IMG/VR virus record: IMGVR_UViG_3300025872_000041
Span: 50,559 to 114,558 of that record
DNA: 64,000 bases
Strand: one strand, 5' to 3'
From: a virus
Taxonomy: Duplodnaviria > Caudoviricetes
The position numbers and the translations under genes were made by a program. Shown in pieces: positions 3,959 through 43,255 of the stretch (position 1 is its first letter; each line of letters starts with the position of its first letter). The notes under the pieces were generated by a model. It had not been told where the DNA came from and searched no databases. It saw nothing but the letters and a program-made list of their open reading frames with translations.

Positions 3959-4813
3959 ATGCTTACAGAATTAAAATATAAAACCTTTGATGAATTACTT
4001 GAAGATGTAAGCGTTGATTTCTCAATGTATTCTTTAGAGGGTATGATTGAGCCTCAACAACTTATTAAAGTTGTTCAGAGAATAAATTATGATTTAGGTT
4101 TAAGAATATTTAAAACTAAAGAAGAGGTTCTAGACATTGAGAATAATCTGGTAAAACTACCAGATGATTTCTATGTAATGAACTATGCTTTACTTTGTGG
4201 TCAATACAAAGTTGAACAGCCGGCCATGAGTGGTACTCACGTTGAGGAAGTTATAATTGACCCGGCAACTGTTACTACTCCATGTGGGGATACTTGTATT
4301 ACTGATTGTGGTGATCATATGCGTCTTGTACAAAAATTACAGTATGAGACACGAATATACGATATAAATACACCAATTACATTAACTGGTAACTCTAAAA
4401 GTATTTCTTGTGATTGTCCTAATACCTCTTATAAATCACCATACGTTGGTAAACTTAAAGATGGTTTTATATACATGAACTTAGAGACTGGAAAACTATA
4501 TGTTAACTATCAAGGAGCTTTAGAAGATGAGGATGGTAACTTATTAATCTTAGATCACCCAATGATTAATGAGTACTATGAGTATGGTTTAAAGCAAAGA
4601 ATACTTGAGAATCTTTATATGAATGGAGAGGACGTAATGCAAAAGTTAAATCTTATTGAACAAAGATTCAGAGGAGCTCGTAACAATGCATTGTCTATTG
4701 TAAATACTCCTAACTTTAAAGAGTTATCTAAATTGCATGATATGAATAGACGTGCTATGTATGGCAAGTACTACGATCAATTTAAAAGTTACAACTATAA
4801 TAGTTCTAGATAA
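3959..4813 (+). CDS. tail tubular/ring protein (P22 gp4-like)
   Basis: 'VKLPDDF' and 'G.LYVNYQG...DEDGNLLILD' patterns typical of crAss-like tail tube proteins; directly upstream of the stabilisation protein. Confidence 0.65.
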   Translation: MLTELKYKTFDELLEDVSVDFSMYSLEGMIEPQQLIKVVQRINYDLGLRIFKTKEEVLDIENNLVKLPDDFYVMNYALLCGQYKVEQPAMSGTHVEEVIIDPATVTTPCGDTCITDCGDHMRLVQKLQYETRIYDINTPITLTGNSKSISCDCPNTSYKSPYVGKLKDGFIYMNLETGKLYVNYQGALEDEDGNLLILDHPMINEYYEYGLKQRILENLYMNGEDVMQKLNLIEQRFRGARNNALSIVNTPNFKELSKLHDMNRRAMYGKYYDQFKSYNYNSSR

Positions 4814-7800
4814 TGGATGGTAAAACCAGTTTAATTCACACCGAGCTATATAACAAAGGCTTACTAAAAGATGTAAGTGATGCTTATATTGGTGAGGGAT
4901 ATTGGACACATGCTAGAAATGCTGTAAACAATTCTCCTTCTGGAGATGTTGGAGTATTAGGTAATGAGCCTAGTAATATAGCTTGTGTAGAAGTACCGTA
5001 TACTATTATAGGTACTATTTATATAAGTAATGGTAAGTGGGCTATTTATTCAACCAATGATTTTTCTTCAGAGATTGGTTTGTTTGATGAGAATGGTTGT
5101 ACATACAATACAATTCATAATGATCCTTTAAACCAGTGTTTTAAGTTTAATAAGGTTTACCCAATTATTGGGGTATCTAAATATACCTCTGATTGTACTT
5201 GGAATCTTTATTGGGATGATGGTAATAATCCATCAAGAACAATGAATATTGGTAAGGAGGAAGCTTGGCCTTATAGTCCTTTAAACTGGGAAGGTGTTCC
5301 GTATCTTATGAATGACTTAGATCCGGGACCATGTAAAGATGAAGTATCTAGTGGTGTATTGGATTGTGATAAACTTAGATTAGCAGCGTATGCTAAAACT
5401 CCTTGTATTCAAGTAAAGAAGGGTGTTGGTCTAGGTACATTACTTAACGGATCATATCAAGCTACAATTGCATATTCTGTAAATGGTATTAAGGTTACAG
5501 ATTACTTAGCTATTTCTAACGTTCAAGCATTATGGACTCATGATAATGTTAATGGTTCTTTAGATATTATCATTAGTGATATAGATACAGACTATGATGA
5601 ATTTGAATTAGTCTTAATAGGTTTTGTTAATCAACAAGCTGTAGCAAGAAAGATTGGTTATTATTCTACTCAAACAACTACTATATCTTTAGATGCTGTT
5701 GATCCAACATTAGCAACAGTTCCTTTAGAACAAATACCTTTACGTACCCCAGCATATGAGAAATCAGCGGGTATGTATAATGTAAATGATTATTTAATTA
5801 GAGTTGGTCCTACTACATATGAAGACTTTAATTATCAACCTCTAGCTAATAATATTACAGCAAAGTGGGTGGGTGTAGAATACCCAGCTGATTATTATTA
5901 TAAAGGCGGAAATAAACCAACATTTTTAAGAGATGAAGTATATAGTTTCTTTATACGATGGATTTATGATACCGGTGATAAATCATCTAGCTATCATATT
6001 CCAGGACGTGCTCCAAAGCCCGGAGAACTTAATAATAATTCTAGCCCTGATCACATTATAGATTTTGGTCAAGAGCAAGAATGGCAAGTAAATAATACAG
6101 CTACAATTCTACCTGCTTCTGGAACAACAGATGATGGTGGTCTTATTAAGTATTCTGGTGAGCTAGCTTATTGGGAATCTACTGAGAAGTATCCTGATAA
6201 TAAACCAGAGATCTGGGGAGATCTTTGTGCTGAAAACATTAGACATCATAAGATGCCTGATGATATTGTAATACCTAATTATAATCCTACTACTAATAGT
6301 ATTATTATTTTAGGTGTTGAGTTTTCTAATATAGAATTTCCTGTAGATCAAAACAATCAATACATTACTAGTATTATAGGTTATGAGATTTTAAGGGGTA
6401 CTAGAGAGGGTAACCGTACTATTATTGCTAAGGGTCTTATTAATAACATGCGGGAGTATGATATACCCGATAAGATTGCAGGTGATAAAGTTACAACTGG
6501 TTTATATGTAAACTATCCTTATAACTTCTTAGACCATGATCCATTCTTAGGTAGAGATAAAGCTACTTTAGATAGACCCGGTAATAGAAGTGTACAAACT
6601 AAGGGTGGAGCATTTAGAGATAAAGATAAATATGATAGCACTGGATTAAGTAATGTAGATGTTACATTATTTGATGGTGTTAAAAGAGATATCTTTTCTT
6701 TTCATTCACCTGAGACAACATTTAGAAATCCTTTCTTATCTGCCACAGAATTAAAAGTTTATGGTGAAGTATATGGTAATGTAATTGGTAGATTTATTCC
6801 GGTTGAGAATCATCCTAAAGATAAATTTATAACAGATACAGCTGTGATACTTTCTTCATTAGCTGGTGTTGCTATTGGTGTGACTGCAGCTAATGCTGCT
6901 AATGGAAATGCTTTGGATCAAGGTAAAGCTGCTATTATGACAGTTGCTTTAGGTAGTATTATAGGAACACCAGTAGCAGGTGCTTCAGGCGCAGTAGTAG
7001 GAGCATTTGCTGGCGCAGCTGCTTATGCAATAGGTCGAGCATTTTTACTATCTTATTATTGGTTAGAATCAACAAGAAACATAGTTGAAATTATAGAATC
7101 TATTGGTAAAAAAAGACAGTTTGCTTATCAGTATGTATCACATGGTTTTTATAATAATCTTATAAAAGCTGCTGTTGGTAGCAGAAGAAGGGGTATTAAA
7201 AACTCTTTATATCTTGATCCTGTTGTTCAGGAATATGATAACATATATAGAATTAATAATCTTTATAGAGCAAACACTGTTGTTTTAACTACTGAAAGAA
7301 CAATTAATGATCCAATAACTAAAGACAATACATTATTTACTATTGGTCATATTGCACGCTCACAAAATGGCAGACCCGATTTAAGTGTTTATGGTGTTGA
7401 TGATAAAGGTAATCCTTTTAATGCTAAAGATATCTGGAAAGAACCAGAGGCATATACTCAAACATCTGTTACCTCTGCTCATTATGCTGCTTTAAAAATT
7501 AAGAATGATAATCTGTATGGTCAACTAGATGGTATTAGACAAATACCTGTAGGGTGTATAAACCTTTGGACTATTAATAAAGCTCTTAAAGCTACCTCTG
7601 GTTTAGTGTTTGGTGGAGATATGTATGTAAACCGCTACACTGAAAAATCTACATTCTTCTATTTTACACAGTGGATGCAGAATTTACCAGATAGCACAGA
7701 GTGGGATTATAGATTATACAACATGCTTCCTTATCCAAGATATTGGATGAATACTGGAAAGTATAATGTTGGTGATTTATTAGATATTGTTTTTGAGCCA

Positions 7801-9552
7801 ACTAGTGATAGCATTCTACCTAATGATTATCATCATTTAGATAGAAGAATGACTTCTGGATTTTTGATGGTTAGGTTTGCTTATATGTATTTGTTTAATT
7901 CTGGCGTTAGAGATTTCTATGTAGAGTCAGAAATTAACTTAGCATATAGAGATTATGATGATAATCCTGGTAAGAGACACTACGATTTTAGAACATATAG
8001 TAACTATGAGCAGTTGTTTAGTGCTCCATACATTAAAGATACAAACTACTATAAGTATGATTACTCTTTAAGTATTAGTAAACATGTATCAAACTTTGTT
8101 TCATGGGGTAATCTTCAACCAAGAATATATGATCCTAATAATGTAAGTTGCTTTACCTCTTATGAGACAAGAGTTATTTATTCTTTACAACAACAGTATG
8201 AATTAAGAAAAGATAACTGGAGACAGTTCTTAGCAAATAACTATTACGACTTTAATTCTAAGGTTGTAACTATGAGAAACTTTGGTAAAACTGGTGCAGT
8301 TATTATGTTCAATGATAGCTCTCCTATTTTATTTCAAGGTGCAGAAACTTTAGATCTTAATGGTGGAACTAAATTAACTATTGGTGATGGTCAGTTATTT
8401 AATGGTCAACCATTACAAAATGTAATAAATGTAGATCCTGAGTTTGAATATGGTAGTTGTCAGAATAGATTATCTGTAATCAATACTCCAGCAGGTTTAT
8501 TCTATGCAAGCCAAAACCAAGGAAAGGTATTTTCTTTTGGTCAAGGAATACAAGACATTTCTAAGTCTGGTATGAAGTGGTGGTTTTCACAATACAGTCC
8601 TTATGCTGTTCTTGAAGATTTTCCTGATCTAGATCCTATAGTATTAGATAATACAATTATTGGGGTTGGATTACAAACTACTTATGATAACATAAATGAG
8701 ATTCTTTATTTCTGTAAGAAAGACTATAAATTAAAACCTGAGTTTAAAGGTAAATTTAAAGCCGGAGCACAGAACAAACTCATATCTACAGAGTATGCAG
8801 GATTAATAATTAATTTAGGTGATCCTACATATTTTGATGATGTATCATGGACTGTTAGTTATGATCCTAAAGCAAAAGCATTTATATCTTTTCATGACTG
8901 GCATCCAGATTTAGTAATGGCTAGTAAGACATACTATATGACAGTTAAGAATAATACTATTTGGAAACATAACTTAGTATGTAACTCTTTCTGTAATTAC
9001 TATGGTGTTGATTATCCATTTGAGATTGAGTATGTACAGAACCAAGGTCAAACCGTTACAACAACTAGATCAGTAGAGTATATTCTAGAATGTTATAAGT
9101 ATTCTCCTAACTGTTTAGATTATCATCACTTATTAGATGAAAATTTTGATCGGGCTATTGTATATAATACAGAACAAATTTCTGGGGACTTAGTATTAAA
9201 CTTATCTCCTAAGAATAATCCTTATTTAATTAATAACTATCCTTTAGTAAATGCTAGTAATATTGATATCTTATTTTCTAAAGAAGAACAGAAATATAGA
9301 TTTAATCAATTCTGGGATATTACTAATGACCGTGGTGAATTTACTGGAACTTTTGTACCCATGTGGACTACTGAACCTAACGGTTATATTAGGAATATTA
9401 ATGCAACTTACGTAAATTATAATAAGGGAGCTACACAAAGAAAGAAGTTTAGGCATTATATTAATAAGGTTGTATTAAAGAAGCTTATTTCCGGGTCATC
9501 TAAATTCTTATTAAAACTCTCCAACAATAAACTACTTGCATCATTTAGATAA
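4813..9552 (+). CDS. tail stabilisation / muzzle protein (P22 gp10-like)
   Basis: 1579 aa. N-terminal 'KGLLKD...W..ARNA...NEPSN', internal 'FLRDEVYSFFIRW', 'FHSPE' and 'FGGDMYVNRY', C-terminal 'WTVSY...FISFHDW.P'. Confidence 0.8.
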   Translation: MDGKTSLIHTELYNKGLLKDVSDAYIGEGYWTHARNAVNNSPSGDVGVLGNEPSNIACVEVPYTIIGTIYISNGKWAIYSTNDFSSEIGLFDENGCTYNTIHNDPLNQCFKFNKVYPIIGVSKYTSDCTWNLYWDDGNNPSRTMNIGKEEAWPYSPLNWEGVPYLMNDLDPGPCKDEVSSGVLDCDKLRLAAYAKTPCIQVKKGVGLGTLLNGSYQATIAYSVNGIKVTDYLAISNVQALWTHDNVNGSLDIIISDIDTDYDEFELVLIGFVNQQAVARKIGYYSTQTTTISLDAVDPTLATVPLEQIPLRTPAYEKSAGMYNVNDYLIRVGPTTYEDFNYQPLANNITAKWVGVEYPADYYYKGGNKPTFLRDEVYSFFIRWIYDTGDKSSSYHIPGRAPKPGELNNNSSPDHIIDFGQEQEWQVNNTATILPASGTTDDGGLIKYSGELAYWESTEKYPDNKPEIWGDLCAENIRHHKMPDDIVIPNYNPTTNSIIILGVEFSNIEFPVDQNNQYITSIIGYEILRGTREGNRTIIAKGLINNMREYDIPDKIAGDKVTTGLYVNYPYNFLDHDPFLGRDKATLDRPGNRSVQTKGGAFRDKDKYDSTGLSNVDVTLFDGVKRDIFSFHSPETTFRNPFLSATELKVYGEVYGNVIGRFIPVENHPKDKFITDTAVILSSLAGVAIGVTAANAANGNALDQGKAAIMTVALGSIIGTPVAGASGAVVGAFAGAAAYAIGRAFLLSYYWLESTRNIVEIIESIGKKRQFAYQYVSHGFYNNLIKAAVGSRRRGIKNSLYLDPVVQEYDNIYRINNLYRANTVVLTTERTINDPITKDNTLFTIGHIARSQNGRPDLSVYGVDDKGNPFNAKDIWKEPEAYTQTSVTSAHYAALKIKNDNLYGQLDGIRQIPVGCINLWTINKALKATSGLVFGGDMYVNRYTEKSTFFYFTQWMQNLPDSTEWDYRLYNMLPYPRYWMNTGKYNVGDLLDIVFEPTSDSILPNDYHHLDRRMTSGFLMVRFAYMYLFNSGVRDFYVESEINLAYRDYDDNPGKRHYDFRTYSNYEQLFSAPYIKDTNYYKYDYSLSISKHVSNFVSWGNLQPRIYDPNNVSCFTSYETRVIYSLQQQYELRKDNWRQFLANNYYDFNSKVVTMRNFGKTGAVIMFNDSSPILFQGAETLDLNGGTKLTIGDGQLFNGQPLQNVINVDPEFEYGSCQNRLSVINTPAGLFYASQNQGKVFSFGQGIQDISKSGMKWWFSQYSPYAVLEDFPDLDPIVLDNTIIGVGLQTTYDNINEILYFCKKDYKLKPEFKGKFKAGAQNKLISTEYAGLIINLGDPTYFDDVSWTVSYDPKAKAFISFHDWHPDLVMASKTYYMTVKNNTIWKHNLVCNSFCNYYGVDYPFEIEYVQNQGQTVTTTRSVEYILECYKYSPNCLDYHHLLDENFDRAIVYNTEQISGDLVLNLSPKNNPYLINNYPLVNASNIDILFSKEEQKYRFNQFWDITNDRGEFTGTFVPMWTTEPNGYIRNINATYVNYNKGATQRKKFRHYINKVVLKKLISGSSKFLLKLSNNKLLASFR

Positions 9553-12500
9553 TGGCAAAGAAAAAACCTATAGTATCTCCTTTAGGTCAGTGGGCTTATC
9601 CCGGTGAAGTTACAATCATACCCTCTTCTAACATAACAATGAAGGGGGTTAATTATCCTGTATTAGGTGTAGATGATTTAGGTAACAGCCAGATGATGAT
9701 GCCAGGTCAAGATTATAATTTTGCTGGACAATATGTAACTGAGTATCCTCAGATGCAGTTTGGTGGTATGTCTAAAAGAAAGATAGACAAAATTCTTAAT
9801 CAGAACAAAGATTTAAACTTTGTTCAAAGAATGTATCAATCTAATACACCAAGTATAATTATACCCGGTCAGAAATATCCTTCTACACATTTTATGGAAA
9901 GCTCTGATGGTCGTGTATATCCTACAGTTGTACAAATGCCTGATGGTAGTTTACAATACTTAGGAGATAATGCATATGATTATGCAAATCAGACCGGTCA
10001 GTATATTGAGTTTCCTAATGATAGGCAAGCTAGAAGATTTGCTAAGAGTTATAAAAAAGGAACCGGGGTATTACAAGAGTTTGGTAAAGGTGGTTTAAGA
10101 CAGTGGTTTGCTGAAGAGTGGACCGATGTTAAGACCGGTAAACCTTGTGGTAGGTCAGGTGATGAGAAAGGTTCTAGACCTTATCCTGCATGCAGACCTA
10201 AGAAGCGGGTAAATGAAACAACCCCCAAGACTACATCAGAGATGTCATCTGCAGAGAAGGCTAAGTTTAAAAGAGAGAAAACATCTGGTAAGCGTATAGA
10301 CTATAATCATAAGCGTAGACAAGATGGTGGTGAAACAGGATGGTTAGATGAATATCAAACTGGTGGTAGTGAACAGAATCCTGAAAGAATGCAGGGTATT
10401 GATATCAAGCGTAAAAAGAAAAATGTAAGCGATAGTCCTAGATATCAGTATGATGATAAAGGTAATTTATTATATACTCCAGAATTAAGTATATGGCCAT
10501 ACGCATCAGATGGTAGTTCAAGAGATGAATTTTTAGTAAATCCTAAATTATCTGTTCAGAATTTAAATCCGACTTTAGAAGAATTTATAAATGTTGCTTC
10601 TCCATATTATCCGATAGATAATAAGTTAGTAACGGATCCAAAAATTAATTTACAATCCTCTAATTATCAAAGATCTCTAGAACAAGAATATGTTTTACCA
10701 CAGATAGTTGGTAAGTCATTTGGTAATTTACCTATAGTTAAAGATGATGGATATTCTCCAAATAGAAGATGGGTCTCTAATTTAAGAGCTAAAGATACTG
10801 GTGCAAAATTTGGTAAAGATTCTTATGCCTATGTTTTAAAAACTAATCCAAATAATTTAGTAGATTATTCTACAAAAAAGGCTATTGAAGCTGCAGTATC
10901 TTCAAATGATGAAGATTTTTATGATTATTTAGCAAAAAATAATTATTCACCTAATATGGTGCAGCAACTTGAAAAAAACCGTCCTGATCAAATCTGGAAT
11001 CGTGCGGAACAAATGCGGGTTGAAATGCGTAATAATCCAGAAATAATGTCTTGGGCTAATCTGCATAATGTGGATTTGGGATATAAAGAAAAAGGAAAAG
11101 GTGATGATTCTTTTGCTTCTAAAATTCCGGAATCTATTTATGCAAATAGATTAGTAAGAGCAGGATTACCTACAAATAGACCTGACTATGAATATAAACC
11201 GATGGAAACTTATATAGTACAAGATCCTTCTAAGTTTGATCTTGCTGGTTATTTTCCAATGGGTTCTATAGTAAAAGATGCTGAGCAAAAAGTACTTAAT
11301 AAAAAAATACCAGGAAAATTAAAAAGAGAATATATCTATAGTAATAGTCCAGAATATTTTGAAAAAGAAGCTTATATAAAAGATGAGATGGCAAGAAGAA
11401 TGGGTATTAATCCAAGTGCTTTTGATTCTGGAGAGTATCTTATTCACTATAATCAATCACCTATAACAGAATATACACCAGGTAAGAAATATGGTGGATG
11501 GTTAGAAGAGTATCAACGTGGTGGAACATTACCTCCTATATATACATCTAATCCAAGAAAAGTACAATTTTATCAGGATAGTTTAAATTTATATAATAAA
11601 TATCAACCATCCTTTGATAAATATAAAAACTGGACTAGACTAAATAATATACAAACTGCTTCTTTACAAGGTAATGATTTATTTAATCAGCATTGGGGTC
11701 CTTTTAAACCTAAAGGTCCTTCTCCTTATAATGAGCATATAGTAATAAAACCTGTAGAAGAAATGATGCATCATTATCTAAGACCTCGTGGGGGTCCAGG
11801 TAATTTTACTCATCTTACTGAAAGACCAGGAAATAATTATTTAGAAACTAAACTATCTGATTATCTTACACCTAATTCAAGAGAAACTCGTCTTTGGCAT
11901 GCAGTTGATAATAATGGTAGGTACTTACCACTGGGTGTTGGTATAACTCCTTCTCAAAAAAGAAGTAATGATGCTAGAAGAAGTAGAACGTGGCCTGTTA
12001 GTGTAACTAAAAAAGATTTTCTAGATTTAGGATTAACTGGTGTTACTCCAGATTTAAATTCTGTTTTTAGATTTAAAAAACCAGTACAACCTTATATTTT
12101 AACAAATCCAGAAATTACTCCTAAAGTAGTAGAACCAGTTTCAGTAGTAGAACCACCTAAGCCTTCTTTATTTGTATCTAATATAGATAGGGACATGTAT
12201 ACTCCCGGTGGAGGAATGGCTAGAGAATATAACATTGGTGTTACATTACAAGATGGCAACCGGAAATCATTCAGAACTGAAAAAGAATTTCAGGATTGGA
12301 AGGCTGCAAATAACTTAGATATTAGTAAAGCTAAAGTAACTGAAGGTAGAGGTTATAGTTATGACTATCCAGAAAATAAGAAGTATGGTGGATGGTTGAA
12401 TAAATATCAAACAGGTGGTTGGGCTGGTTGGACACCTAATGTAGGTAAGCCATATATGAGAACTAGTCCTGCAGGTAATGCCGGCTACACTGATAATACT

Positions 12501-15356
12501 AGAGTAGTTAATCAGAATACAAATGTTAGTGCAGAGAATAGAAAAGCAGCGGAAGCAGCTGAATATGCTAAACGTGTAGGTAGTATTAGTCAGGGTAAAA
12601 CTAAATCTGCTTATGAAAAAGCAAGAGAAGCTAGTTCATTAGTAGCACAAGCAGAACAACGTAAAGGTTCTGCTGATCCTTTAGACTATGTATTAGATAT
12701 GGTTAATCCGGCTACGTATGGATTTGCCGGAGCTGATCTAATAGGTAATACTGCAATGGGTGTAAACAACTTAGCTAAAGGTAATTTTAGTGAAGCTGCT
12801 GGTAATGCTTTTGATGCTGGTATGAATGCTTTGTATTTATTGCCTGCAAAAGGTGTTGCTAAAGCTATTGCAAGTCCTATGGCATTTAGACCTGTAGAAG
12901 GTATGATGTATAGAGGTCTTGGTAAAGAAGGTTTTAGAGATGCTATAGAGTCAGGTGTATTTAGACCTAAACAACTTAATTATTCTCCCGGTAGATCTCT
13001 TGCTGAAAAAGCTAACTCTCCAAAACAATTTAGTAGTACATATTATGCACCAAGTAAAAAATTTGGAGTTGTAGAAAGATATGGTTCAGATTATGTAGCT
13101 GAAGTACCTTATAATGAAGCTGATTTTTTTAGAAGGTATAGTAAAAGAAATGATTGGAGTTATTCTACTCCAAGACAAATTCCTATTACTGAAGGAAGAA
13201 TATTAAAGAAAGATTGGTTACTAGGATATAAACCAATAGATGTTTCTAATGCACAATCTTCTATGAATCTATCTAAAATGGATGGTAGCTATTTAGTTCG
13301 TGAACTTTTAGGAGAAGCAATTAAAGGTAATCAAAATAGAAAAGCAATTGCTGAAGGAAATGCTTGGTTAAAAAATTGGATTGATGATCCAATAACTCAA
13401 ACTAAGATAGATACTGATTTAGGTTGGATTCCACAAAGAAGTAATATTTTAAAAGATAAATTTAGCTTAGGCTATGAACAAGCTAAATCATTTACACCTG
13501 TTTCAAAAGAATATCCTTTTTCAGAACAATTAAACGATTATTTTATTCGTGTTAAACCCCATATACATTCTGGTAATAGTGGTGTAAGTTATTTACACAG
13601 TAGAGATCCCTATTCAAGATCAATATCAGAACAATTTAATGATCCTAGATTAAAAGCTAGTTGGATTAGTAGAAATCCTAGTATATCTAAACCAGTAAGA
13701 AGATCTACTACTGTTCATGAAGGAACTCATGACTGGACCTCTGATTTTTTATTGAGAGAATCAGGACAAATGGGTGACATAAGAAATTTATATTCAGATG
13801 ATATTAGAAATCTCAGTGATCAATGGAAAAGTTTAAGAAATAGCGGTATTAATCCTTCTGAAGTAATGGGTCGTGAAAATGCTACTTTAGGTTATTTAGC
13901 AGATCCAACTGAAGTACATGCTAGAATTATGGAATTAAGGCAACTTATGAAAATGACTCCGGAACAATCTGTAATGGTTACTCCTGAAAAAGCTGCTGAT
14001 ATAATAACAAAAGTACAAAACCCAAAAAATGCAAAATTTGTAGATCCTAGATTTCTTGATGTTATAGATAAAGATCCTAAAAAATTAGCAACTTTATTTA
14101 ATAGACTATGGGCGGTTCCTGCTGTAGCTACAGCATCTCAATTACTAGAACAAAAGAATGGTGGTTGGTTAGATACATATCAAGATGGTGGAGAGAATCT
14201 TCCAGAGTTAAATTCTAAAATAGATATTGCTAACTTCTATAAGAATCCTTTAAGTGAGAAGTATGGTATCTACCAGGATCCTACAGATAATACATACAAG
14301 TATTATTCAAAGTCTGCAGAGGAACCAAACATCCCATTAAAAACATTTGATTTTACTAATCTGGGTAATATTGCAAGAAGAATTGATAAAAAGGAAATAA
14401 CTACTCCACAACCAATTAAGTATAATTCTAAAATGATAGATTATGCAGCTGATCAGGATTACTTAACAGCATTGGCTACTGAAGAATTTCCTATTATTCC
14501 ACCATCTTTTAAAGATGTTTTAAGTAATATTCCTAAATTAGAAACAATAAATACTATTCCTAAACCTAAAGCGTTACCTAATAAACAACCTGCAGTCAAT
14601 AACGCTTTTACATTTGATAGCAATTATTGGAATAGTGCTGATGTACAAGCTGAGGTTTTTAATAGACAATTAAAAGATAATAAATGGTATGGTGAGTTTG
14701 ATAAACGTGGTGATAATGTATTAAATAGAACTGATGTAAAAAGAAATTATGACTCTGAAGTTTTCTTACAGAATTTAGCAACTCCAAATTCTGTAGTTAT
14801 AGATATTGGATCTGCTTTAGGTAACAATAATCCAAAACTTGCAGGGGTATCTGTATATGAATTAGCTTCTAATCCTAAAATAAAAAGTAAGAATATTAAA
14901 GTTATAGCAACAGATATTCCTTCAGAAGTAAAAGGATTTGAAGAATTAAAAAGACGCGGTAATAGTGTGTATCCTATTGATTATGCTCAAGTACCAGAAA
15001 CATTTAATACTCCTGTAAGAGATATTTTAAAAGCTAAAAATCTAGAGAATGTTAAAGATGTATATCTTAGAGCTGCTAATAGTATAGATTTGCTTATGAA
15101 TGTACAGGAAACTAGTGAACATTTTAAACATATAAGTAGTACTTTAAAAGATAAAAACGTAACTTACTTATATAACAATACCATATTATATAAACCAGCT
15201 GGTTCTACTAAATTTAAAAAATTAGGTAATTTAAATAATAGTGCTTTTGATCATAGATCACCAAGTTGGAAAAATAATCCTAATAGAAATCATTATACAC
15301 TCTTACCAACTAATAAAACCGGTGGTGAAACGGGTTGGCTTAATAAATACAAATAA
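9552..15356 (+). CDS. large modular virion (cargo-like) protein with ART-like, zincin and methyltransferase-like modules
   Basis: 1934 aa. Modules are separated by GGWLxxYQxGG-type repeats and include 'MYRGLG...STYYAP...VAEV', 'HEGTH...PTEVHAR' and 'VIDIGS...VIATDI'. Confidence 0.6.
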   Translation: MAKKKPIVSPLGQWAYPGEVTIIPSSNITMKGVNYPVLGVDDLGNSQMMMPGQDYNFAGQYVTEYPQMQFGGMSKRKIDKILNQNKDLNFVQRMYQSNTPSIIIPGQKYPSTHFMESSDGRVYPTVVQMPDGSLQYLGDNAYDYANQTGQYIEFPNDRQARRFAKSYKKGTGVLQEFGKGGLRQWFAEEWTDVKTGKPCGRSGDEKGSRPYPACRPKKRVNETTPKTTSEMSSAEKAKFKREKTSGKRIDYNHKRRQDGGETGWLDEYQTGGSEQNPERMQGIDIKRKKKNVSDSPRYQYDDKGNLLYTPELSIWPYASDGSSRDEFLVNPKLSVQNLNPTLEEFINVASPYYPIDNKLVTDPKINLQSSNYQRSLEQEYVLPQIVGKSFGNLPIVKDDGYSPNRRWVSNLRAKDTGAKFGKDSYAYVLKTNPNNLVDYSTKKAIEAAVSSNDEDFYDYLAKNNYSPNMVQQLEKNRPDQIWNRAEQMRVEMRNNPEIMSWANLHNVDLGYKEKGKGDDSFASKIPESIYANRLVRAGLPTNRPDYEYKPMETYIVQDPSKFDLAGYFPMGSIVKDAEQKVLNKKIPGKLKREYIYSNSPEYFEKEAYIKDEMARRMGINPSAFDSGEYLIHYNQSPITEYTPGKKYGGWLEEYQRGGTLPPIYTSNPRKVQFYQDSLNLYNKYQPSFDKYKNWTRLNNIQTASLQGNDLFNQHWGPFKPKGPSPYNEHIVIKPVEEMMHHYLRPRGGPGNFTHLTERPGNNYLETKLSDYLTPNSRETRLWHAVDNNGRYLPLGVGITPSQKRSNDARRSRTWPVSVTKKDFLDLGLTGVTPDLNSVFRFKKPVQPYILTNPEITPKVVEPVSVVEPPKPSLFVSNIDRDMYTPGGGMAREYNIGVTLQDGNRKSFRTEKEFQDWKAANNLDISKAKVTEGRGYSYDYPENKKYGGWLNKYQTGGWAGWTPNVGKPYMRTSPAGNAGYTDNTRVVNQNTNVSAENRKAAEAAEYAKRVGSISQGKTKSAYEKAREASSLVAQAEQRKGSADPLDYVLDMVNPATYGFAGADLIGNTAMGVNNLAKGNFSEAAGNAFDAGMNALYLLPAKGVAKAIASPMAFRPVEGMMYRGLGKEGFRDAIESGVFRPKQLNYSPGRSLAEKANSPKQFSSTYYAPSKKFGVVERYGSDYVAEVPYNEADFFRRYSKRNDWSYSTPRQIPITEGRILKKDWLLGYKPIDVSNAQSSMNLSKMDGSYLVRELLGEAIKGNQNRKAIAEGNAWLKNWIDDPITQTKIDTDLGWIPQRSNILKDKFSLGYEQAKSFTPVSKEYPFSEQLNDYFIRVKPHIHSGNSGVSYLHSRDPYSRSISEQFNDPRLKASWISRNPSISKPVRRSTTVHEGTHDWTSDFLLRESGQMGDIRNLYSDDIRNLSDQWKSLRNSGINPSEVMGRENATLGYLADPTEVHARIMELRQLMKMTPEQSVMVTPEKAADIITKVQNPKNAKFVDPRFLDVIDKDPKKLATLFNRLWAVPAVATASQLLEQKNGGWLDTYQDGGENLPELNSKIDIANFYKNPLSEKYGIYQDPTDNTYKYYSKSAEEPNIPLKTFDFTNLGNIARRIDKKEITTPQPIKYNSKMIDYAADQDYLTALATEEFPIIPPSFKDVLSNIPKLETINTIPKPKALPNKQPAVNNAFTFDSNYWNSADVQAEVFNRQLKDNKWYGEFDKRGDNVLNRTDVKRNYDSEVFLQNLATPNSVVIDIGSALGNNNPKLAGVSVYELASNPKIKSKNIKVIATDIPSEVKGFEELKRRGNSVYPIDYAQVPETFNTPVRDILKAKNLENVKDVYLRAANSIDLLMNVQETSEHFKHISSTLKDKNVTYLYNNTILYKPAGSTKFKKLGNLNNSAFDHRSPSWKNNPNRNHYTLLPTNKTGGETGWLNKYK

Positions 15357-15361: not shown

Positions 15362-17878
15362 ATGAAAGATAAATTTTTACAAATGGCTGGTGTTAATTCT
15401 GAGGAAGAATTCTATTCTATGTTTCCTACAGAAGAAGCATTCTTTCAAGCTTATCCTGAAGCCAGAGAAATGAAAAAGGGTGGTAATGTACCCACTAATC
15501 CAGAACTATATTCTCGTGTTAAATCTGAGGCTAAATCTAAATTTGATAGATGGCCTTCAGCTTATGGTTCTGCATGGCTTGTTAAGACTTACAAGAGCCG
15601 TGGTGGTGGATATAGAAAAGCTCAAACCGGTGGTGCTATGGGACAAGAAATGTTTCAGTATCCTAACTATGAATCTCTTGGTAGCTACTTTGATAAAGTA
15701 AATGAGTATAATAAAAATAATATTCAAGAGCCTGTTGGTGATTTCTTAAAAAATACTGCAATGGCTATAGGTCAAGGAATGGATAATGGTGAAGGAAATG
15801 GTGAAGATAAAATGAAAATGGCTAATCTTGCTATGAATTTTATGGGTATGCCAGCTATGGGTATGGGTGGTGTAGGTATGATGATGCGTGATAACTATTA
15901 TGATGAAGGTGGTGAAATGGCAATGGGTCAGATAATGGCTATGAATGATAAGATTGCTAGATTACAAAACTTTATTAATGCTGAGTCAGAAGTTGAACCC
16001 TGGGTAGCTAGTAAATTAACTTTAGCTGATGATTATATTTCTTCTGTTGCTGATTACATGCAATTTAATGAGGGTTCTCAAGAAGAAGGAGAGGAAGAAG
16101 AGGAAGACATTGACATGAACATGGGTGAGATGGAAGAGATGAAGATGGGTGGTATTCCTCAGCGTTATAAGAACCGGGGATTTACTAAAGTAGGTGCTAA
16201 AAGAAAATCTGATAGAGCTGGTAAGAAATGGATGGTATTAGCTAAGAAAGGTGACAAGTATAAAATTGTACATGGTGGTTACACTGGTATGAAAGATTTT
16301 AGTCAACATGGTTCTGAGAAGCGTAAAGATAATTTCTGGAATAGAATGGGTGGTAAGAACTCAGCTAAGGCTACAGATCCATTCTCTCCTTTATACTGGC
16401 ACAAGCGTTTTGGTACTTGGGCTAAAGGTGGTGAAATGATGCCTCCTGAGATTGCACGTGCACGTTTTGCAGCTGCCGGTAACTTAGATAAATTAGATGA
16501 TTATGGTTATGCTATGGGTGGATATATTCCTGAAATGGCTGCTGGTGGTTGGGCACAACAAGCTGCTATTGCCATTGCAATGAAAAAAGCTGGTAAGAAA
16601 CCTAAGTCTGCAAAAGGTGGTGAACCACAAAATGCTGGCTTCCAAGCATTACCTCCTTATGTACAAGCTAAGATCTTATCTAATATGGCAGAAGGAGGAA
16701 CTTATGGTTCTGCTCCTATTAATACATTCATGTCTCCTGGTATTGATAATGATCCTAGGTTTGAACAATATTATAATCAACAGATACAACAATTTAATAA
16801 AGCTGGTGTAAAACAAGTACCATCACGTAATGATATTTATTCTTACTATCAGTCTTCTAATCCTCAATCAGCCGTAGATCAAACAGGACGTATGATTTTT
16901 AATTCTGCACCAGGAACTATTTCTAGCTCAACTACATTTACACAAGCTGTAGATCCTAAAACAGGTAAAGTATTAAATCAAGGTTCTAACTTAGAAAAGG
17001 CTGCATTTGATCAACAAGCTCGTAGATTTCAAGAAGGTGGTCCTGCTTTAACAGAAGAGCAAAAAGCTGCGGCTGCTGAAGCTGCTGCTAAGAAAAAGAA
17101 ACGTAATGATACTATGACTGGTATTGGTTTAGGTATTGGAACTGCTGCTGGTGTTATTGCTTCTGAAATCAGAGCTGCTCGTAAGCAGAGAGGTTATGAA
17201 GAGTTTATGAATTCTAATGATCCAAGACTTGGTACTGGTCAAACTCCATCAAATAAAGAACTTCGTAAAATGGGTAGAAGAATGTATGGTGGTGATATAG
17301 ATATGTATGGTGGTCAAATGGATATGGATGCTATGTATAATATGATGAAGGGTGGTTCTACATTTAGTGGAAATGCATGGTATGGTAAAGGTGGACAACC
17401 TTGTTATGAATGTGGTGGTAATGTATATCAAGAAGGTGGACAACAAGATGAGGTTATGCAAGCTATTCAGATGTATGCTGAGATGACTCAAACGGATCCT
17501 GAGCAACTTATGGCAGAACTACAATCTTTACCTCCTTTGGAGCAACAAGAGGTTATTCAAAAGATTATGCAAGCTATTCAAGAAGCACAAACTGGTCAAA
17601 TGAAGAACGGTGGTATCTATATTAATCCAGCTAACAAAGGTAAGTTTACTGAGTCAGCTAATAGAGCCGGTATGGGTGTGCAAGAGTTTGCTAGAAAGGT
17701 ACTTGCAAATAAAGAGGACTATAGTGCAACACAAGTAAAAAGAGCTAACTTTGCTAGAAACGCTGCTAATTGGAAGAAACAATTTGGCGGCATGACTCAA
17801 GGTGCAGAATTAGAATTACATCCTGATGAGATTCAAGCATTGATTGATCAGGGTTATGGTATTGAGTATTTAGATTAA
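15362..17878 (+). CDS. modular Met/Gly-rich virion protein with about 19 xxxGG motifs
   Basis: 838 aa of short basic or acidic modules, each ending in a motif such as MKKGG, YDEGG, WAKGG, FQEGG or MKNGG. Confidence 0.6.
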   Translation: MKDKFLQMAGVNSEEEFYSMFPTEEAFFQAYPEAREMKKGGNVPTNPELYSRVKSEAKSKFDRWPSAYGSAWLVKTYKSRGGGYRKAQTGGAMGQEMFQYPNYESLGSYFDKVNEYNKNNIQEPVGDFLKNTAMAIGQGMDNGEGNGEDKMKMANLAMNFMGMPAMGMGGVGMMMRDNYYDEGGEMAMGQIMAMNDKIARLQNFINAESEVEPWVASKLTLADDYISSVADYMQFNEGSQEEGEEEEEDIDMNMGEMEEMKMGGIPQRYKNRGFTKVGAKRKSDRAGKKWMVLAKKGDKYKIVHGGYTGMKDFSQHGSEKRKDNFWNRMGGKNSAKATDPFSPLYWHKRFGTWAKGGEMMPPEIARARFAAAGNLDKLDDYGYAMGGYIPEMAAGGWAQQAAIAIAMKKAGKKPKSAKGGEPQNAGFQALPPYVQAKILSNMAEGGTYGSAPINTFMSPGIDNDPRFEQYYNQQIQQFNKAGVKQVPSRNDIYSYYQSSNPQSAVDQTGRMIFNSAPGTISSSTTFTQAVDPKTGKVLNQGSNLEKAAFDQQARRFQEGGPALTEEQKAAAAEAAAKKKKRNDTMTGIGLGIGTAAGVIASEIRAARKQRGYEEFMNSNDPRLGTGQTPSNKELRKMGRRMYGGDIDMYGGQMDMDAMYNMMKGGSTFSGNAWYGKGGQPCYECGGNVYQEGGQQDEVMQAIQMYAEMTQTDPEQLMAELQSLPPLEQQEVIQKIMQAIQEAQTGQMKNGGIYINPANKGKFTESANRAGMGVQEFARKVLANKEDYSATQVKRANFARNAANWKKQFGGMTQGAELELHPDEIQALIDQGYGIEYLD

Positions 17879-24078: not shown

Positions 24079-27000
24079 ATGGAAGAATTTGACAATGCAA
24101 TTCCACCACTAGGTGTTGAACCCGGTTTGCCTTCTAACTTTGAAGGATCAGATGCTTTTCAAGCAAGTATTGCGCCAACTAATGAGCCGTTAATATCTGT
24201 AACTGATACCTATGCTGTTCCTGGAGTTCCAGTACCTTCAGCATTTGGTAGCGTTGCTGTAGATTATGATCCTAGTAATCCTTTTGATGTTGCTAAACAA
24301 GCATTGACAAAACCTATTACTGAATCTGATGTTGCATTTGAGACTTCAAAAGAAAAATATTTTCAGCCTGGGTATCAGCAAACAAACTTTGATAGATACT
24401 ATAATGATAGTGATAACTTCTATAAGCTAGGATTTAATCCATTAGCTAATAACGAAGCATTATATAATCAGAATAGAAGTTGGTATCAAGATTTATTTAG
24501 AGCAGCTGGTGGTATTCCTTCATTAGGATTATCTGTTGTTCAATCAGGATATAGAAGTCTTGCCGATATGGCAACTGGTGATTTCTCTATGACTGATGAA
24601 ACTGGTGCTAGAGAGTTCTCCCAGATTATGGCAGAACGCGGCAGCACTAGAGGTGGTGTATCTGGTTTTGCTTCTAATTTAGTTTTACAATCAGGATTTG
24701 TTGCAGGTATTGCAGCAGATTACTTAGCTACTGAAGCATTACTTGCTGGTGCTGTAGGTTTATCTGAAGGTATGGCTCTTCCTGCAGCTCTTGCTGCTAG
24801 TGCTTCTAAAACAGCTGGTACTATTAGATCCATTTCTGCATTGTTTGATGCTAATACTGCTAGACAAGCTTACAATACAATTAAAGCTATGGATGTGGCT
24901 GCTATTGGTAGAGGTGCATTAAATGTAGCTGAAGCAACTGCTAAGAATATTGTTCCTAATACATTTAAGAATGTTAAGAGTTTCATTACTGCAGAAAGCC
25001 CTGTATTAGGATTAGCTAATTCAGTAAGAGGTGTTGCTGACTTTGTAAGAGATATGAAGCAGATTAGCTATGCTACTGCTGAAGCTTCTATGGAAGGCGG
25101 AGGAGTTAAAAATGATTTTATTGATAAACATATTAATCAATACATTACTGAGAATGGAGTATATCCAGATCAAGATGTATTAAATAAGATTTATGAGAAG
25201 GCATCAGATGCTGGTTTTACAACTGGTATGATAAATGCACCCCTTATTCTTCTTACAAACAATATCACTTTTGATAACTTGTACAAAGGTCGTAAAAGCA
25301 CATTAGGTAAAACAGCTTCAGGTATTGTAGAGGAAAGTAAATTAACTGGAAAAACTTTAAGATTCTCAGAAAGAACCGGACAGTTTGAGACTATGGGTAT
25401 AAGACAATCTTTTGCTGAAAGCATAAGAGGTCTTAAAACTCCAAAAACGTACATGCAGTTTGCTGGTGGTTATTTCTCTAAAAACTTATCTGAAGGTCTT
25501 CAGGAAATTTCTCAAGAGATTATTTCTGGAGCATCTACAGATTACTATGAAAGATTATATGATACTCCAGAAGCTGGAGGTGTAGTAGCTTACTTAGCAG
25601 ATGCTTATGATAATCTTAAAGATCAAGCATCAGCACAAGGTATTGAAGTATTTGCTTCAGGATTTTTAATGGGAGGTCTTACCGGTATTTCTACTGCTGT
25701 AGCTAACAGAGCTTATGGTAGTAGTAAAAATATTATTGGTAAGATAGCACAAGCTAAGAACCCAGAAGAGTATAGAAAAGCTGTAGAAGAAGAGAGCGCT
25801 AGATTTAATAAGATTGCTGATGAATTAAATGATGCCATTAATAATGGTAATAAAGTTCTTGCTCTTGATATAGATAATTTATTATTACAAATCAGAGGAG
25901 GTACTGATATGGTTAATGCTAGAAAATCATTTGATGAAAAAGCATTCCATGATATTAAAGACATAACTCGTTTTAATAGTATCTATACAGCTCTTCAAAC
26001 TGACAAATATGATTTCTTAATTAAGAAATTACAGGACATGCAGCAAATGACCGGTGCAGAATTAAAAGAGGCATTTAGTTTAGCTGATGATGTTACAGAT
26101 GATGAGGCCAAAAAAGTATTAGATATTACTATTGATAGAGCTGGTCAAATTAAAGATCAGTATGAGCAGTTCTCTGCATTTAAGAATCCTTTTAATCCTA
26201 ATACTTATAGATCTGCTAATACTCCAGAATCCATTATTGGATTTATTAATGAGTTACAAAGTTATAAAGGATTTGAAGAGGCCCGCAAAACTGCAGTATT
26301 TAGTTTACATGGTTTAGAACAAGCTAAGACACGTATGGCTGATTTAACTAAACAGATGTCATCTATTGGTGGTGTTGCTGATTTAGGTTACTCTGATGTT
26401 ACAGCTACCTTAAGTATTGCAGGTATTGATAATGAAATAAACTTATTAACTGCAGAGATTGAATCTAGTAAAGATATAACTGATCCGGGTCTTATTGAGA
26501 TTAATGATAATAAAAAGAAGAAGTTAAAAGCTTTAGAATCTTTAAAAACTAATCTTGCCCGTGTTGAAAATATTAATGATCCTGTAGAAGTAAGAAAGAC
26601 TTCTTATTTAAAGAAAGCTTTTAATGACTACATGAAGGTTCTTTTAGATGAGAAAGGTACTGAACTCAGTCCTGCAGATCTAAATGAAGCATATAGAATC
26701 TTTACTGATTATTATGCACTCAATTATGATAAGACAAACTTTAATAAAGTCTTGGCTGACTTATATGATCCTAATAACTTTATTAAGCTTGCTGAAAGAG
26801 AGCGTACTTTAGTTGTTGCAAGAGATAAAAGAAGAGCTGAGTTCTTTAAGAAAGCATTTAAAAAATATGCTGAGACATCTAAGATTGGTATATTTTTAAA
26901 AGCTTTAGCTACTGGTGGATTTGTTATTGATCTTAAGTATCTTAAAGCTTTAGATACTAATACATTTGATGAGCTTAAAGAACTTATTTTAAATGATCCG

Positions 27001-37737: not shown

Positions 37738-37740
37738 GAG

Positions 37741-43029: not shown

Positions 43030-43030
43030 T

Positions 43031-43046
43031 GGGGGATTTCTCCCCC
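43031..43046 (-). terminator. hairpin terminator GGGGGA-GAAA-TCCCCC (possibly bidirectional)
   Basis: 6-bp GC stem with a GNRA loop on the - strand followed by ATTATTTT; lies between convergent stops at 43029 and 43053. Confidence 0.65.
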
Positions 43047-43052
43047 TACATT

Positions 43053-43208: not shown

Positions 43209-43220
43209 ATGTATGTTATT

Positions 43221-43228
43221 CAAATCTA
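43221..43228 (-). promoter_or_regulatory. Bacteroidota -7 promoter element (TAGATTTG)
   Basis: TAnnTTTG on the - strand, 12 nt upstream of the ATG at 43208. Confidence 0.5.
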
Positions 43229-43240
43229 ATTAATTTTCAC

Positions 43241-43255
43241 TATATTATATATGTA
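43241..43255 (+). promoter_or_regulatory. putative phage late-promoter motif (TATATTATATATGTA)
   Basis: Recurrent 15-nt motif, upstream of the holin/lysin operon. Confidence 0.5.

Follow-up and report, generated by a model that had tools for sequence, protein, structure and literature searches.

A short tryptophan-containing peptide recurs between the modules, and forms the end, of a putative cargo protein of an uncultured crAss-like phage

Why should a phage protein repeat one short peptide between otherwise unrelated modules and then end in it? The question is raised by a 64,000-nt stretch (the window) of the 114,558-base genome of an uncultured crAss-like phage, in which an uninterrupted open reading frame at 9552-15356 encodes a protein of 1934 aa, P0001 (plus strand, as are all features below). 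We scanned the six frames of the window with the pattern GW[LIVM]..Y[QK] and found five matches, all inside this frame, with the first G of GWL at nt 10338, 11496, 12390, 14163 and 15333 and the Trp at aa 264, 650, 948, 1539 and 1929. The DNA pattern GGNTGGYTN7TAYMAR likewise matched five times, in comparison with a mean of 0.03 in 100 dinucleotide-preserving shuffles, none of which reached five. Within the whole genome, the motif was confined to this frame, which was also unique among the frames of at least 60 aa in having a tag-like C-terminus. The recurrence described in the initial annotation is real, and the positions given there, 10317, 11484, 12378, 14151 and 15312, correctly mark where the quoted peptides begin: tag 1, RQDGGETGWLDEYQTGG (10317..10367); tag 2, KKYGGWLEEYQRGG (11484..11525); tag 3, KKYGGWLNKYQTGG (12378..12419); tag 4, QKNGGWLDTYQDGG (14151..14192); and tag 5, NKTGGETGWLNKYK (15312..15356), which is directly followed by the stop codon and ends the protein as …GGETGWLNKYK-stop. 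The motif-to-motif blocks measure 269, 386, 298, 591 and 390 aa. These sizes agree with the unrelated blocks of about 280-580 aa that had been claimed, but the blocks are composite: the fourth consists of three independently mobile sub-domains with no motif between them, and so does the first.

The setting of the gene points to virion cargo. Its start codon overlaps, at 9552, the stop codon of the muzzle gene (4813..9552), whose 1579-aa product matched Pfam PF25731 (crAss_MUZ; E 6.4e-33, 114.4 bits vs a cut-off of 27) and PHROG 37948, a virion structural protein (5.1e-59). Genes for Ring 1, Ring 2, the Crass capsid protein and a P22-like portal were identified upstream of the cargo gene with Pfam; a 408-aa frame sits between the portal and capsid genes, and a DUF2201 metallopeptidase-VWA gene is located in the replication arm of the phage genome. 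According to the accessible text of Bayfield et al. (2023, PMC10172136), the muzzle gene of crAss001 is followed by the gene for cargo protein C1 (gp45), and this position, with the muzzle adjacency, backs the earlier description of P0001 as the product of a virion gene. The muzzle gene was present in 32 of the 42 viral records with the strict motif DNA pattern. The upstream frame abutting the family gene was large or edge-cut (at least 370 aa) in 20 of 46 related loci, and in the other 26 the frame ending just upstream measured 41-322 aa. In the cultured phage phi4:1, the gene following that for the muzzle encodes gp041, whose record lists it as a virion protein identified by MS/MS, and the record of gp040 bears a similar note; gp041 has two HExxH motifs and matches an HMM of the P0001 zincin described below at E 2.3e-6. 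The tag motif was absent from the genes following the muzzle genes of the cultured relatives phi4:1 and Fpv1. Synteny and the proteomics of these distant, motif-less relatives suggest, by analogy, that P0001 is packaged in the virion and ejected.

Few of the modules resemble known families. The whole of P0001 and its five blocks, searched against Pfam, NCBIfam and PHROGs, matched nothing except DUF5872; phmmer found no match among PDB chains at E up to 1, and tblastn against 50,697 phage records matched the DUF5872 stretch alone, in five records. A literature search found no published description of the tag-capped family. P0001 has no membrane helix by hydrophobicity, the 19-residue Kyte–Doolittle maximum of 1.07 given for the m4a region being below transmembrane grade. 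The N-terminal domain X (aa 7-72, 9570..9767) is predicted to be a small beta-barrel (AF2 pLDDT 95-98 at residues 8-70) and is the most widespread module of the family, BLASTP to residues 1-83 matching 34 of the 42 other family proteins; in relatives it stands at the N-terminus, internally or at the C-terminus, and fold searches returned only weak cupin-like rows (VIA Z 5.0 or less, Foldseek E 0.15 or more). A degenerate junction after it, PQMQFGGMSKRKI (aa 66-78, 9747..9785), aligns where relatives carry …YPMMKEGGWLSKYQxGG. The insert module that follows (aa 78-173, 9783..10070) was delimited by comparison with relatives, being present in L001, L065, L071, L085, L084 and L055 and missing from L002, L004, L056 and L064. 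The DUF5872 match (aa 158-247, 10023..10292; PF19197, E 1.6e-11) scored above the gathering threshold (45.3 bits vs 27.5) over profile positions 36-113 of 116, in a basic region holding the only two Cys of P0001.

Module m2 (aa 273-643, 10368..11480) belongs to no known family, with no match in Pfam and family profiles and no usable result in the ESM Atlas. Module m3 (aa 659-942, 11526..12377) is likewise of no known family, and its last ~115 aa, m3b, are mobile as a separate cassette. The fourth block comprises the Gly/Ala-rich, helical m4a (aa 957-1107, 12420..12872), m4b (aa 1115-1235, 12894..13256), where YRG and AEVP are conserved in the alignment consensus, and m4c (aa 1238-1523, 13263..14120). 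The last block is composed of m5a (aa 1548-1674, 14193..14573), common to P0001, L002 and L005, and m5b (aa 1675-1920, 14574..15311).

The modules had been described as effector-like, and predicted folds agree with this for two of them. A single AF2 model spanning m4b and m4c had a mean pLDDT of 85.4. For m4b, the best VIA match was the Tpt1-type 9ld3 (Z 7.6, rmsd 2.5, 79 aligned), followed by Tpt1 7yw2 (7.3), a further Tpt1-type protein (7.0), CC0527 (7.0), TreX (6.7), scabin (6.3) and pertussis S1 (6.2), with rmsd 2.5-4.0 over 79-99 aligned residues and Z values that are middling. Among the matches listed for model residues 16-136, down to Z 5.8, the proteins were of the ADP-ribosyltransferase (ART) fold; Foldseek again gave ART families (E 0.027-0.7). 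From the model, we confidently assign m4b to the ART fold, a split beta-sheet, and consider it a putative enzyme. In m4c, the HEGTH motif lies at aa 1389-1393 (nt 13716-13730). Its zincin fold matches spanned Z 4.5-6.2, the best being PepO 4iuw (Z 6.2, rmsd 4.9, 200 aligned) and others 9kn2 (6.0), ECE-1 (5.7), PPEP-2 (5.5) and anthrax lethal factor (5.0); in BFVD, the best matches were structural proteins of the Cellulophaga phages phi14:2 and phi4:1 (E 1.3e-3 and 2e-3), and no Pfam model matched. With its confidently folded model, m4c is probably an HExxH zincin, a putative peptidase. For m5b, the stretches VIDIGSALG … IATD, read as methyltransferase-like motifs, and an ESM Atlas feature score of 0.90 to methyltransferase clusters provide a lead, and a lead only, to a possible class I SAM methyltransferase. 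The module had no match in Pfam, NCBIfam or a PDB profile search, and none of 11 homologues of m5 belonged to a methyltransferase family, the PDB profile search giving one chance-level row. SLT, YkuD, LysM, PG_binding_1 and SET domains in relatives further fit the effector-like description. Independent folds, as the initial annotation would expect, were thus obtained for part of the protein, two confident ones (m4b and m4c) and the domain X barrel; the AF2 model of residues 1-660 (mean pLDDT 54.5) was usable for domain X alone and did not resolve m2, the insert and DUF5872. Any activity of the P0001 modules is putative.

The proposal that the modules are exchangeable was borne out by the relatives. 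Across 43 distinct related genes (147-2042 aa; 38 with a complete 3' end), orthologues were not collinear, with modules gained, lost and reordered and cassettes found internally or terminally. The intact m2 cassette varies in position, starting anywhere from residue 43 to 1213 in 17 representatives, and its end reads …TPGKKYGGWLEEYQRGG-m3 in P0001 vs …TPGMKNGGWLNKYK-stop in P0093. Similarly, the end of the m3 cassette is internal in P0001 and terminal in L001 (…YPENKKYGGWLDQYK-stop), and that of the tag 4 cassette is internal in P0001 and terminal in P0085, P0008 and P0118. Of 23 clusters of pre-motif context with at least three members, five contained both internal and terminal copies. As the same cassette can be internal (…YQxGG and the next module) or terminal (…YK-stop), each cassette carries its own tag. 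Single-linkage clustering collapsed 85 of the 131 blocks into one group because sub-domains are common across blocks.

The placement of the tag is regular. Proteins carry up to six copies, and the tag forms the C-terminal end in 36 of the 38 genes with a complete 3' end (33 by the regular expression and 3 as variants), the exceptions being L075 and L089. In the 33 distinct terminal copies, the stop follows at W+5 in 29 and at W+4 in 4, and never later. In 5 of the 43 proteins, the tag unit instead opens the chain as M-x-WLxxYxxGG. The terminal, N-terminal and internal placements together indicate that Gly-Gly occurs only on the side of the tag that faces protein. Trp and Leu are invariant in all 82 internal and all 33 terminal distinct copies, and Tyr/Phe is kept in 81 of the internal ones. 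In P0001, the tags sit in low-confidence AF2 segments (pLDDT 30-56) beside confident domains, tag 1 at about 30 and tag 4 at 42-56, beyond the last zincin helix, which we read as accessible, disordered peptides in the prediction.

The explanation that we favor, with a probability of roughly 40% for the whole, is that P0001 is a polyvalent cargo protein at the C1 position, in a Crassvirales-like phage of a Bacteroidota host, and that the tag is a docking handle for loading and ejection. P0001 would be packed into the particle and then ejected before the DNA. A cassette would be a payload module with its own C-terminal WLxxY(Q/K) peptide on Gly-Gly hinges; concatenation would place the peptide between modules (…GG-WLxxYQ-x-GG…) and leave that of the last cassette at the C-terminus (…GG-WLxKYK-stop). 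We infer that the peptide most likely docks each module on a partner within the particle, itself encoded by the phage, giving loading and orderly ejection, and the handle would stay with its module even if the chain were later cut downstream of the peptide. After ejection, the payloads (an ART-fold enzyme, a zincin and a possible methyltransferase, and in relatives wall-active enzymes and SET) would act on the host envelope or cytoplasm. The AF2 model counts against docking in one respect, as tags 1 and 2 were not packed onto domain X within the same chain.

A possible, if doubtful, alternative is that the motif is a protease signal. A phage enzyme, for instance the zincin within P0001, would cut the polyprotein at its junctions, after YQ or after either or both of the Gly-Gly pairs. 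Cutting in the capsid or after ejection would release separate enzymes, and short N-terminal leaders would be propeptides. Processing of virion polyproteins at Gly-Gly-X has precedents in adenovirus and African swine fever virus. Gly-Gly pairs indeed flank the tag unit, upstream in 76-77 and downstream in 66-67 of the 82 internal copies, and two Phi-x-x-G-G units, [M/K]KxGG and YQxGG, can be discerned in the motif. The residue at W+5 is Q in 57 of 82 internal copies and K in 19 of 33 terminal ones, the enrichment of Q thus being limited to internal copies, which suggests an extra or different constraint on these, as a cutting site would impose. In more distant clades, the m2 cassette ends …TPGMQMGG or …TSGMKNGG, retaining at the matching place only Phi-x-x-GG; the absence of WLxxY there indicates that the module itself does not need the handle. 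Furthermore, many relatives begin with a leader of 40-55 aa followed by the motif, and the HExxH zincin of P0001 adjoins tag 4. The m4c-type zincin is, however, carried by just 7 of the 43 family proteins, ruling it out as a general self-cutter, and a Pfam scan of 54 further ORFs, 17 upstream structural ORFs and the cargo block found no prohead, adenain-like or C39 protease, nor any other virion protease. Terminal and N-terminal copies have nothing to release, and in 46 of 46 loci the motif-bearing modules are kept in one frame, never split into separate tagged genes. The literature provides arguments on both sides: in the accessible text of Iyer et al. (2017, PMC5512222), polyvalent proteins are proposed to have their domains freed by such peptidases, and P1 DdrB is described as processed, but N4 virion RNA polymerase as packed uncut. 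In the available texts of the crAss001 paper (PMC10172136) and a Crassvirales review, words in "proteoly-" are absent and "cleav" occurs, respectively, zero times and once, about inteins. Taken further, the idea of the tag as a portable address, raised below, would make it both the docking handle and a mark after which some protease frees each module.

The distribution of the tag bears on whether the partner belongs to the phage or to the host. It is improbable, in our judgment, that the tag works on the host side, its hydrophobic centre and basic flanks attracting a chaperone or another host factor to each entering module, so as to ratchet the unfolded chain in, aid its refolding or place modules at the membrane. 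Hsp70 typically binds hydrophobic cores that have basic residues on either side, and the tag fits this description with K frequent at -4 and +3 around W-L-x-x-Y, its predicted disorder and its presence once per module. According to the accessible parts of PMC10172136 and the Crassvirales review, cargo is also believed to traverse the tail in a partly unfolded state and to regain its fold in the cell. A host role would nevertheless leave the exact stop at W+4 or W+5 in every terminal copy unexplained, and chaperone-type sites require no invariant Trp. The strict DNA pattern was found in 48 stretches of viral contigs, each in the reading phase of an open frame of at least 153 aa; 596 Gb of bacterial genomes gave 50 chance-like matches, at most one of them in context. 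A motif at chance level in bacterial genomes argues against mimicry of a host motif, and we rejected an origin in the host proteome on the same ground. The ends are, moreover, specific to phage lineages. A sister crAss-like clade (18 distinct proteins of 208-737 aa; the muzzle gene in 5 of 5 tested records) carries m4a at 57-69% identity, flanked by another constant N-leader and a constant C-end, …FLxKSKVKK-stop. Lineage-specific ends combined with common payloads point to a phage partner. The tag does not simply track the capsid protein, as it is common to phages with capsid proteins merely 21-25% identical and a lineage whose capsid protein is 34% identical to that of one tagged phage has another end.

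The initial annotation had also suggested that similarity of the linkers at the DNA level could provide recombination points. The five copies in P0001 have 24-26 of 33 bases in common, in exact runs of just 7-11 bases, a likeness that codon bias explains. Over the 43 genes, codon use within the motif is the same as gene-wide (entropy for G 1.50 vs 1.43; for Y 0.69 vs 0.69), and synonymous sites varying as elsewhere in the genes indicate a constraint on the peptide, not on the DNA. These results do not support linkers conserved as DNA for recombination, an idea that we rejected, and show conservation of the tag at the level of the protein. Breakpoints of similarity were nonetheless concentrated at the motif, 117 of 723 falling within 10 aa of it vs 31.5 ± 5.7 expected (3.7-fold enrichment; reached in none of 500 randomisations). 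Some four-fifths of the breakpoints, and several of the borders between sub-domains, lie away from any motif, which is thus not the only seam. That the motif is a mere flexible seam, persisting as a cassette joint through micro-homology recombination between copies, is quite unlikely: the breakpoints, the differing module orders, the short exact DNA runs and the Gly-Gly and low pLDDT at seams suit it, but the invariant W/L and nearly invariant Y/F across such divergent phages, the constrained peptide, the genes ending exactly in the tag unit and the motif-free breakpoints do not.

CrAss-like phages are, in the parts of the literature available, among the most abundant known viruses and load and inject megadaltons of protein per particle. 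A 6-residue peptide capping nearly every cargo gene of a clade, and accompanying each exchangeable module, provides a concrete handle on how cargo is loaded and injected. The family further illustrates how ready-made enzymes (ART-fold, peptidase, SET, wall hydrolases) are shuffled by phages within one putatively injected protein, the same payloads moving between lineages that each keep their own constant ends. We tentatively suggest that WLxxY(Q/K) on Gly-Gly hinges could be a portable address, sufficient for capsid loading and injection of any protein in this clade, in the manner of encapsulin cargo but with an infectious virion as the container; this would account both for cassettes that bring along their own tag and for the other constant ends of sister clades with the same payloads. 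If the tag alone did direct loading, it would offer an easy way of getting foreign proteins into phage particles.

Each of four known systems shares part of this arrangement. Encapsulin cargo-loading peptides and the capsid targeting sequence of phage T4 are short, portable and mostly terminal; from a flexible tether they direct unrelated proteins into a shell of the HK97 fold, and in T4 the head protease goes on to remove the signal. The tag resembles them in being short, portable, mostly terminal and joined to unrelated modules, and differs in recurring within the chain and in its unrelated sequence. Polymorphic toxins (Rhs, CdiA, MuF-type phage toxins) have a conserved demarcation motif before a variable end, which can double as a cleavage site, and share with the P0001 family the constant trafficking parts, exchangeable payloads and short conserved seam motif. 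In contrast to their one variable tip after one motif, with an immunity gene alongside, the P0001 family has serial payloads with a motif after each, no immunity gene seen and putative delivery by the virion.

C1 of crAss001 (gp45) is described in the accessible text of PMC10172136 as a long virion protein, for the most part unstructured, that runs from the capsid into the tail, with short segments attached to portal, tail rings and muzzle and ejection from N to C. The gene of P0001 occupies the same place, directly downstream of the muzzle gene. However, gp45 has 842 aa and a predicted membrane helix, whereas P0001 lacks such a helix, is twice as long and bears putative enzymes. The motif is in neither gp45 nor gp46 of crAss001, and homology of P0001 to either was rejected, the best BLASTP E of gp45 against the 43 family proteins being a nonsignificant 0.31.

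The polyvalent proteins of Iyer, Burroughs, Anand, de Souza and Aravind (2017, PMC5512222) combine unrelated conflict-type domains in one large phage protein. In the accessible text, a zincin peptidase is the commonest domain, often with ADP-ribosyltransferases, methylases and lysozymes, the MPTase being linked to the anthrax lethal factor fold; packing in the head and delivery together with the DNA are proposed for these proteins, and their architectures are highly mosaic. P0001, with at least two unrelated effector-type domains (ART fold and probable zincin), is of this kind in its domain make-up. Pfam PolyVal models did not match P0001, and ART-PolyVal matched one relative, L058, below its cut-off (28.6 bits vs 31.2). 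The same text describes no conserved junction or terminal peptide and has no "linker". The domain set of P0001 is that of polyvalent proteins; it differs from them in that all its cassettes bear one common short tag, which also forms the end of the protein.

As we searched the six frames of the window with the regular expression GW[LIVM]..Y[QK], we found five copies, all inside the plus-strand ORF at 9552-15356, which encodes the 1934 residues of the putative modular cargo protein P0001. The tag tryptophans lie at residues 264, 650, 948, 1539 and 1929, the fifth copy forming the C-terminus, and the motif coordinates and peptides quoted in the initial annotation were correct. The DNA pattern for the motif gave 5 matches compared with 0.03 expected (100 shuffles), and the whole virus record (114,558 bases, rated 96% complete; window, bases 50559-114558) contains no motif outside this ORF. 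P0001 has only two cysteines, both within its DUF5872 stretch (…KPCGR…YPACRP), and none of its 1934 residues form a membrane-grade hydrophobic segment.

In 2.9 million viral contigs, the strict GGWLxxYQxGG DNA pattern occurs in 48 stretches; all the viral matches (50/50) are in frame within open frames of at least 153 aa, and 32 of the 42 viral records with matches have a muzzle gene. Applied to 596 Gb of bacterial genomes, the pattern gave 50 matches that look like chance: their frames are short, the typical context is missing and no more than one qualifies as a candidate. We drew the family from the post-muzzle region of 40 matching records and 5 close loci, giving 43 distinct motif-bearing genes (147-2042 aa, one per locus) whose proteins carry one to six copies (median 3). 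Many relatives open with a four-Cys zinc-ribbon-like leader (…CTCGHSW…CHICGKDN…) followed directly by the tag (the 40 N-terminal aa; loci L067, L071, L083 and L087-L094); others open …KQKKYFGAIAGGATPLKAINGGWL.

Among the 38 genes whose 3' end is complete, the regular expression located a terminal motif in 33, and three more have variants; the C-termini at loci L075 and L089, also complete, are without the tag. The 33 distinct terminal copies stop five residues after the tryptophan (W+5) in 29 cases and at W+4 in 4, and the unit also stands at the N-terminus, as M-x-WLxxYxxGG, in 5 of the 43 proteins; Gly-Gly therefore accompanies WLxxY only on its protein-facing side or sides. When the set was widened to 170 distinct proteins, the copies numbered 196 internal and 68 terminal, and 5 of the 23 pre-motif context clusters with at least three members contained both kinds. 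From this mixing and the terminal rule it follows that each cassette, a payload module with its tag, brings its own 3' tag, and that the last cassette supplies the protein end. The internal consensus is K(-4)-x-G-G-W-L-[DSN]-[KQE]-[YF]-Q-x-G-G, W and L being invariant in 82 of 82 internal copies, and terminal copies prefer K at +5.

Family orthologues of the P0001 gene lack collinearity. In P0001, domain X (residues 7-72) stands at the N-terminus, whereas some relatives have it at an internal site and others immediately ahead of the C-terminus; module m2 is an intact unit whose start ranges from residue 43 to 1213 among relatives; and m3 precedes m4 in P0001, with the m4-like block preceding the m3-like one in locus L001. 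Similarity breakpoints lie within 10 residues of the motif in 117 of 723 cases, compared with 31.5 ± 5.7 expected and a count matched in 0 of 500 randomisations, so modules are joined preferentially, though not exclusively, at the motif. Block 4 is itself composed of three sub-domains, each mobile on its own and none separated from the next by a motif. At the DNA level, the five P0001 copies have 24-26 of 33 bases in common, with uninterrupted identity over 7-11 bases, which is what strong codon bias predicts, and in all 43 genes the motif codon choice is that of the remaining gene sequence; the constraint therefore acts on the peptide. The suggestion of the initial annotation that the linkers are kept as DNA recombination sites was thus not borne out; micro-homology may aid cassette joining.

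The sole family-library name on P0001 is DUF5872, at residues 158-247. The AF2 model of residues 1100-1544 (42-sequence alignment; mean pLDDT 85.4) has two domains. Residues 1115-1235 matched ADP-ribosyltransferase-fold proteins, with VIA Z of 7.6, 7.3 and 7.0 for Tpt1-type enzymes, 7.0 for CC0527, 6.7 for TreX, 6.3 for scabin and 6.2 for pertussis S1, and Foldseek E of 0.027-0.7 for families of this fold. Residues 1238-1523 matched zincins (VIA Z 6.2 and 6.0 for PepO, 5.7 for ECE-1, 5.5 for PPEP-2 and 5.0 for lethal factor) and contain an HEGTH metal motif at residue 1389. The Z values are intermediate, yet the matched families agree with one another and the metal motif is present. A search of the viral structure library gave structural proteins of the Cellulophaga phages phi14:2 (E 1.3e-3) and phi4:1 (E 2e-3) as the best hits to the model. 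The phi4:1 protein gp041, whose gene follows the phi4:1 muzzle gene, is listed in its database entry as a virion protein identified by MS/MS; it contains two HExxH motifs and is hit by the zincin HMM built in this analysis (E 2.3e-6). Residues 1675-1925 resemble methyltransferase clusters (ESM Atlas 0.90), which we take as a lead only, and neither ESM Atlas (m2) nor homologue searches explained m2 and m3. Domains in relatives include SLT, PG_binding_1, LysM with YkuD, and SET, and one relative has a sub-threshold ART-PolyVal match.

The start of the P0001 gene overlaps the stop codon of the preceding gene, which encodes the 1579-aa muzzle protein (crAss_MUZ, Pfam 6.4e-33). Further upstream are genes for Ring 1, Ring 2 and a capsid protein (Crass_capsid), as well as a weak match to a P22-type portal; ORFs of 838, 1186, 853, 4552 and 1762 aa follow downstream. 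The 838-aa ORF (15362-17878, plus strand) is the next cargo gene; DUF5872 is represented there by its N-half (aa 44-86), and DUF5754 lies at aa 281-329. The DUF5872 stretch reads …PSAYGSAWLVKTYKSRGGGY, tag-like with one residue more, and DUF5872 and the tag may be related. The 4552-aa ORF (24079-37737, plus strand), with a single HExxH at aa 1966 and no match in Pfam or PHROG, should by position hold the crAss-like virion RNA polymerase. The gene at 44639-46528 (plus strand) combines Cohesin (Pfam 2.9e-13) with a sorting domain for type IX secretion (Por_Secre_tail, 1.5e-10), which suggests a phage protein exported via the host's secretion system and points to a host among the Bacteroidota. 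Outside the window lie a spore-photoproduct-lyase-like (radical SAM) gene (whole-record bases 4374-5204, L133:4374-5204, minus strand; Pfam SPL 8.8e-21) and two tail-fibre-like ORFs of 1127 and 2199 aa (L098:1830-5213 and L098:5206-11805; whole-record bases 34830-44805), both with a C-terminal Peptidase_S74 self-cleaving chaperone domain.

A sister crAss-like group (18 distinct proteins, 208-737 aa; muzzle gene in 5 of 5 tested records) has the payload of sub-module m4a (aa 957-1107) at 57-69% identity. Its constant parts differ, the leader being MFVPGVNGS…KKRKMPNGG and the end …FLxKSKVKK-stop, and its proteins contain no GGWL copies. These polymorphic cargo proteins come from viral contigs L099-L132 (e.g., L102:7001-8431), where the cargo gene follows the muzzle gene with two small ORFs in between; a further cargo ORF in this clade ends …KKGMYKKSKK. 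Capsid proteins of the tag-bearing phages form two groups, mutually only 21-25% identical, and that of the sister group shares 34% identity with one of these groups. Even more distant clades have an m2 cassette that terminates in Phi-x-x-G-G and lacks WLxxY.

We favour, with a probability of roughly 0.4, a docking handle: the tag would be a short docking peptide on flexible hinges, one per module, that a phage-encoded partner recognises at loading or ejection. This reading explains the per-cassette tag, the exact terminal placement and the lineage-specific ends around shared payloads. The main rival, a protease signal, is the more doubtful of the two. In its favour, Gly-Gly pairs flank the unit, Q at +5 is confined to internal copies, short leaders precede the first copy and a predicted zincin is built into P0001; against it, that zincin occurs in only 7 of the 43 family proteins, Pfam found no virion protease in the genome, and the terminal copies have nothing to release. 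Per Pfam, the sole other peptidase-like gene in the genome lies beside an AAA ATPase gene in the replication arm (the pair at 59168-61499, minus strand) and encodes a putative metallopeptidase (DUF2201) that has a VWA-like domain. The docking and cleavage readings are compatible if cutting takes place after the tag. A host-side role for the tag, or its being a passive seam, is in either case improbable.

The motif strings were absent from the literature searched. For crassvirus cargo and for polyvalent proteins, the works found were only the 2017 survey, the structural atlas and a review, whose consulted sections describe neither a junction peptide nor a terminal one. According to those sections, the C1 cargo protein of phage crAss001 is encoded by the gene after the muzzle gene (PMC10172136); part of it is located in the tail barrel and part on the portal, and its ejection is presumed to run from N to C, before the DNA (PMC10172136; review PMC10136315). 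The P0001 gene occupies the same position after the muzzle gene, although P0001 has no sequence similarity to C1 (gp45; best E 0.31). The predicted domain make-up of P0001 and its relatives is that of the polyvalent proteins, as presented in the consulted sections of Iyer et al. 2017.
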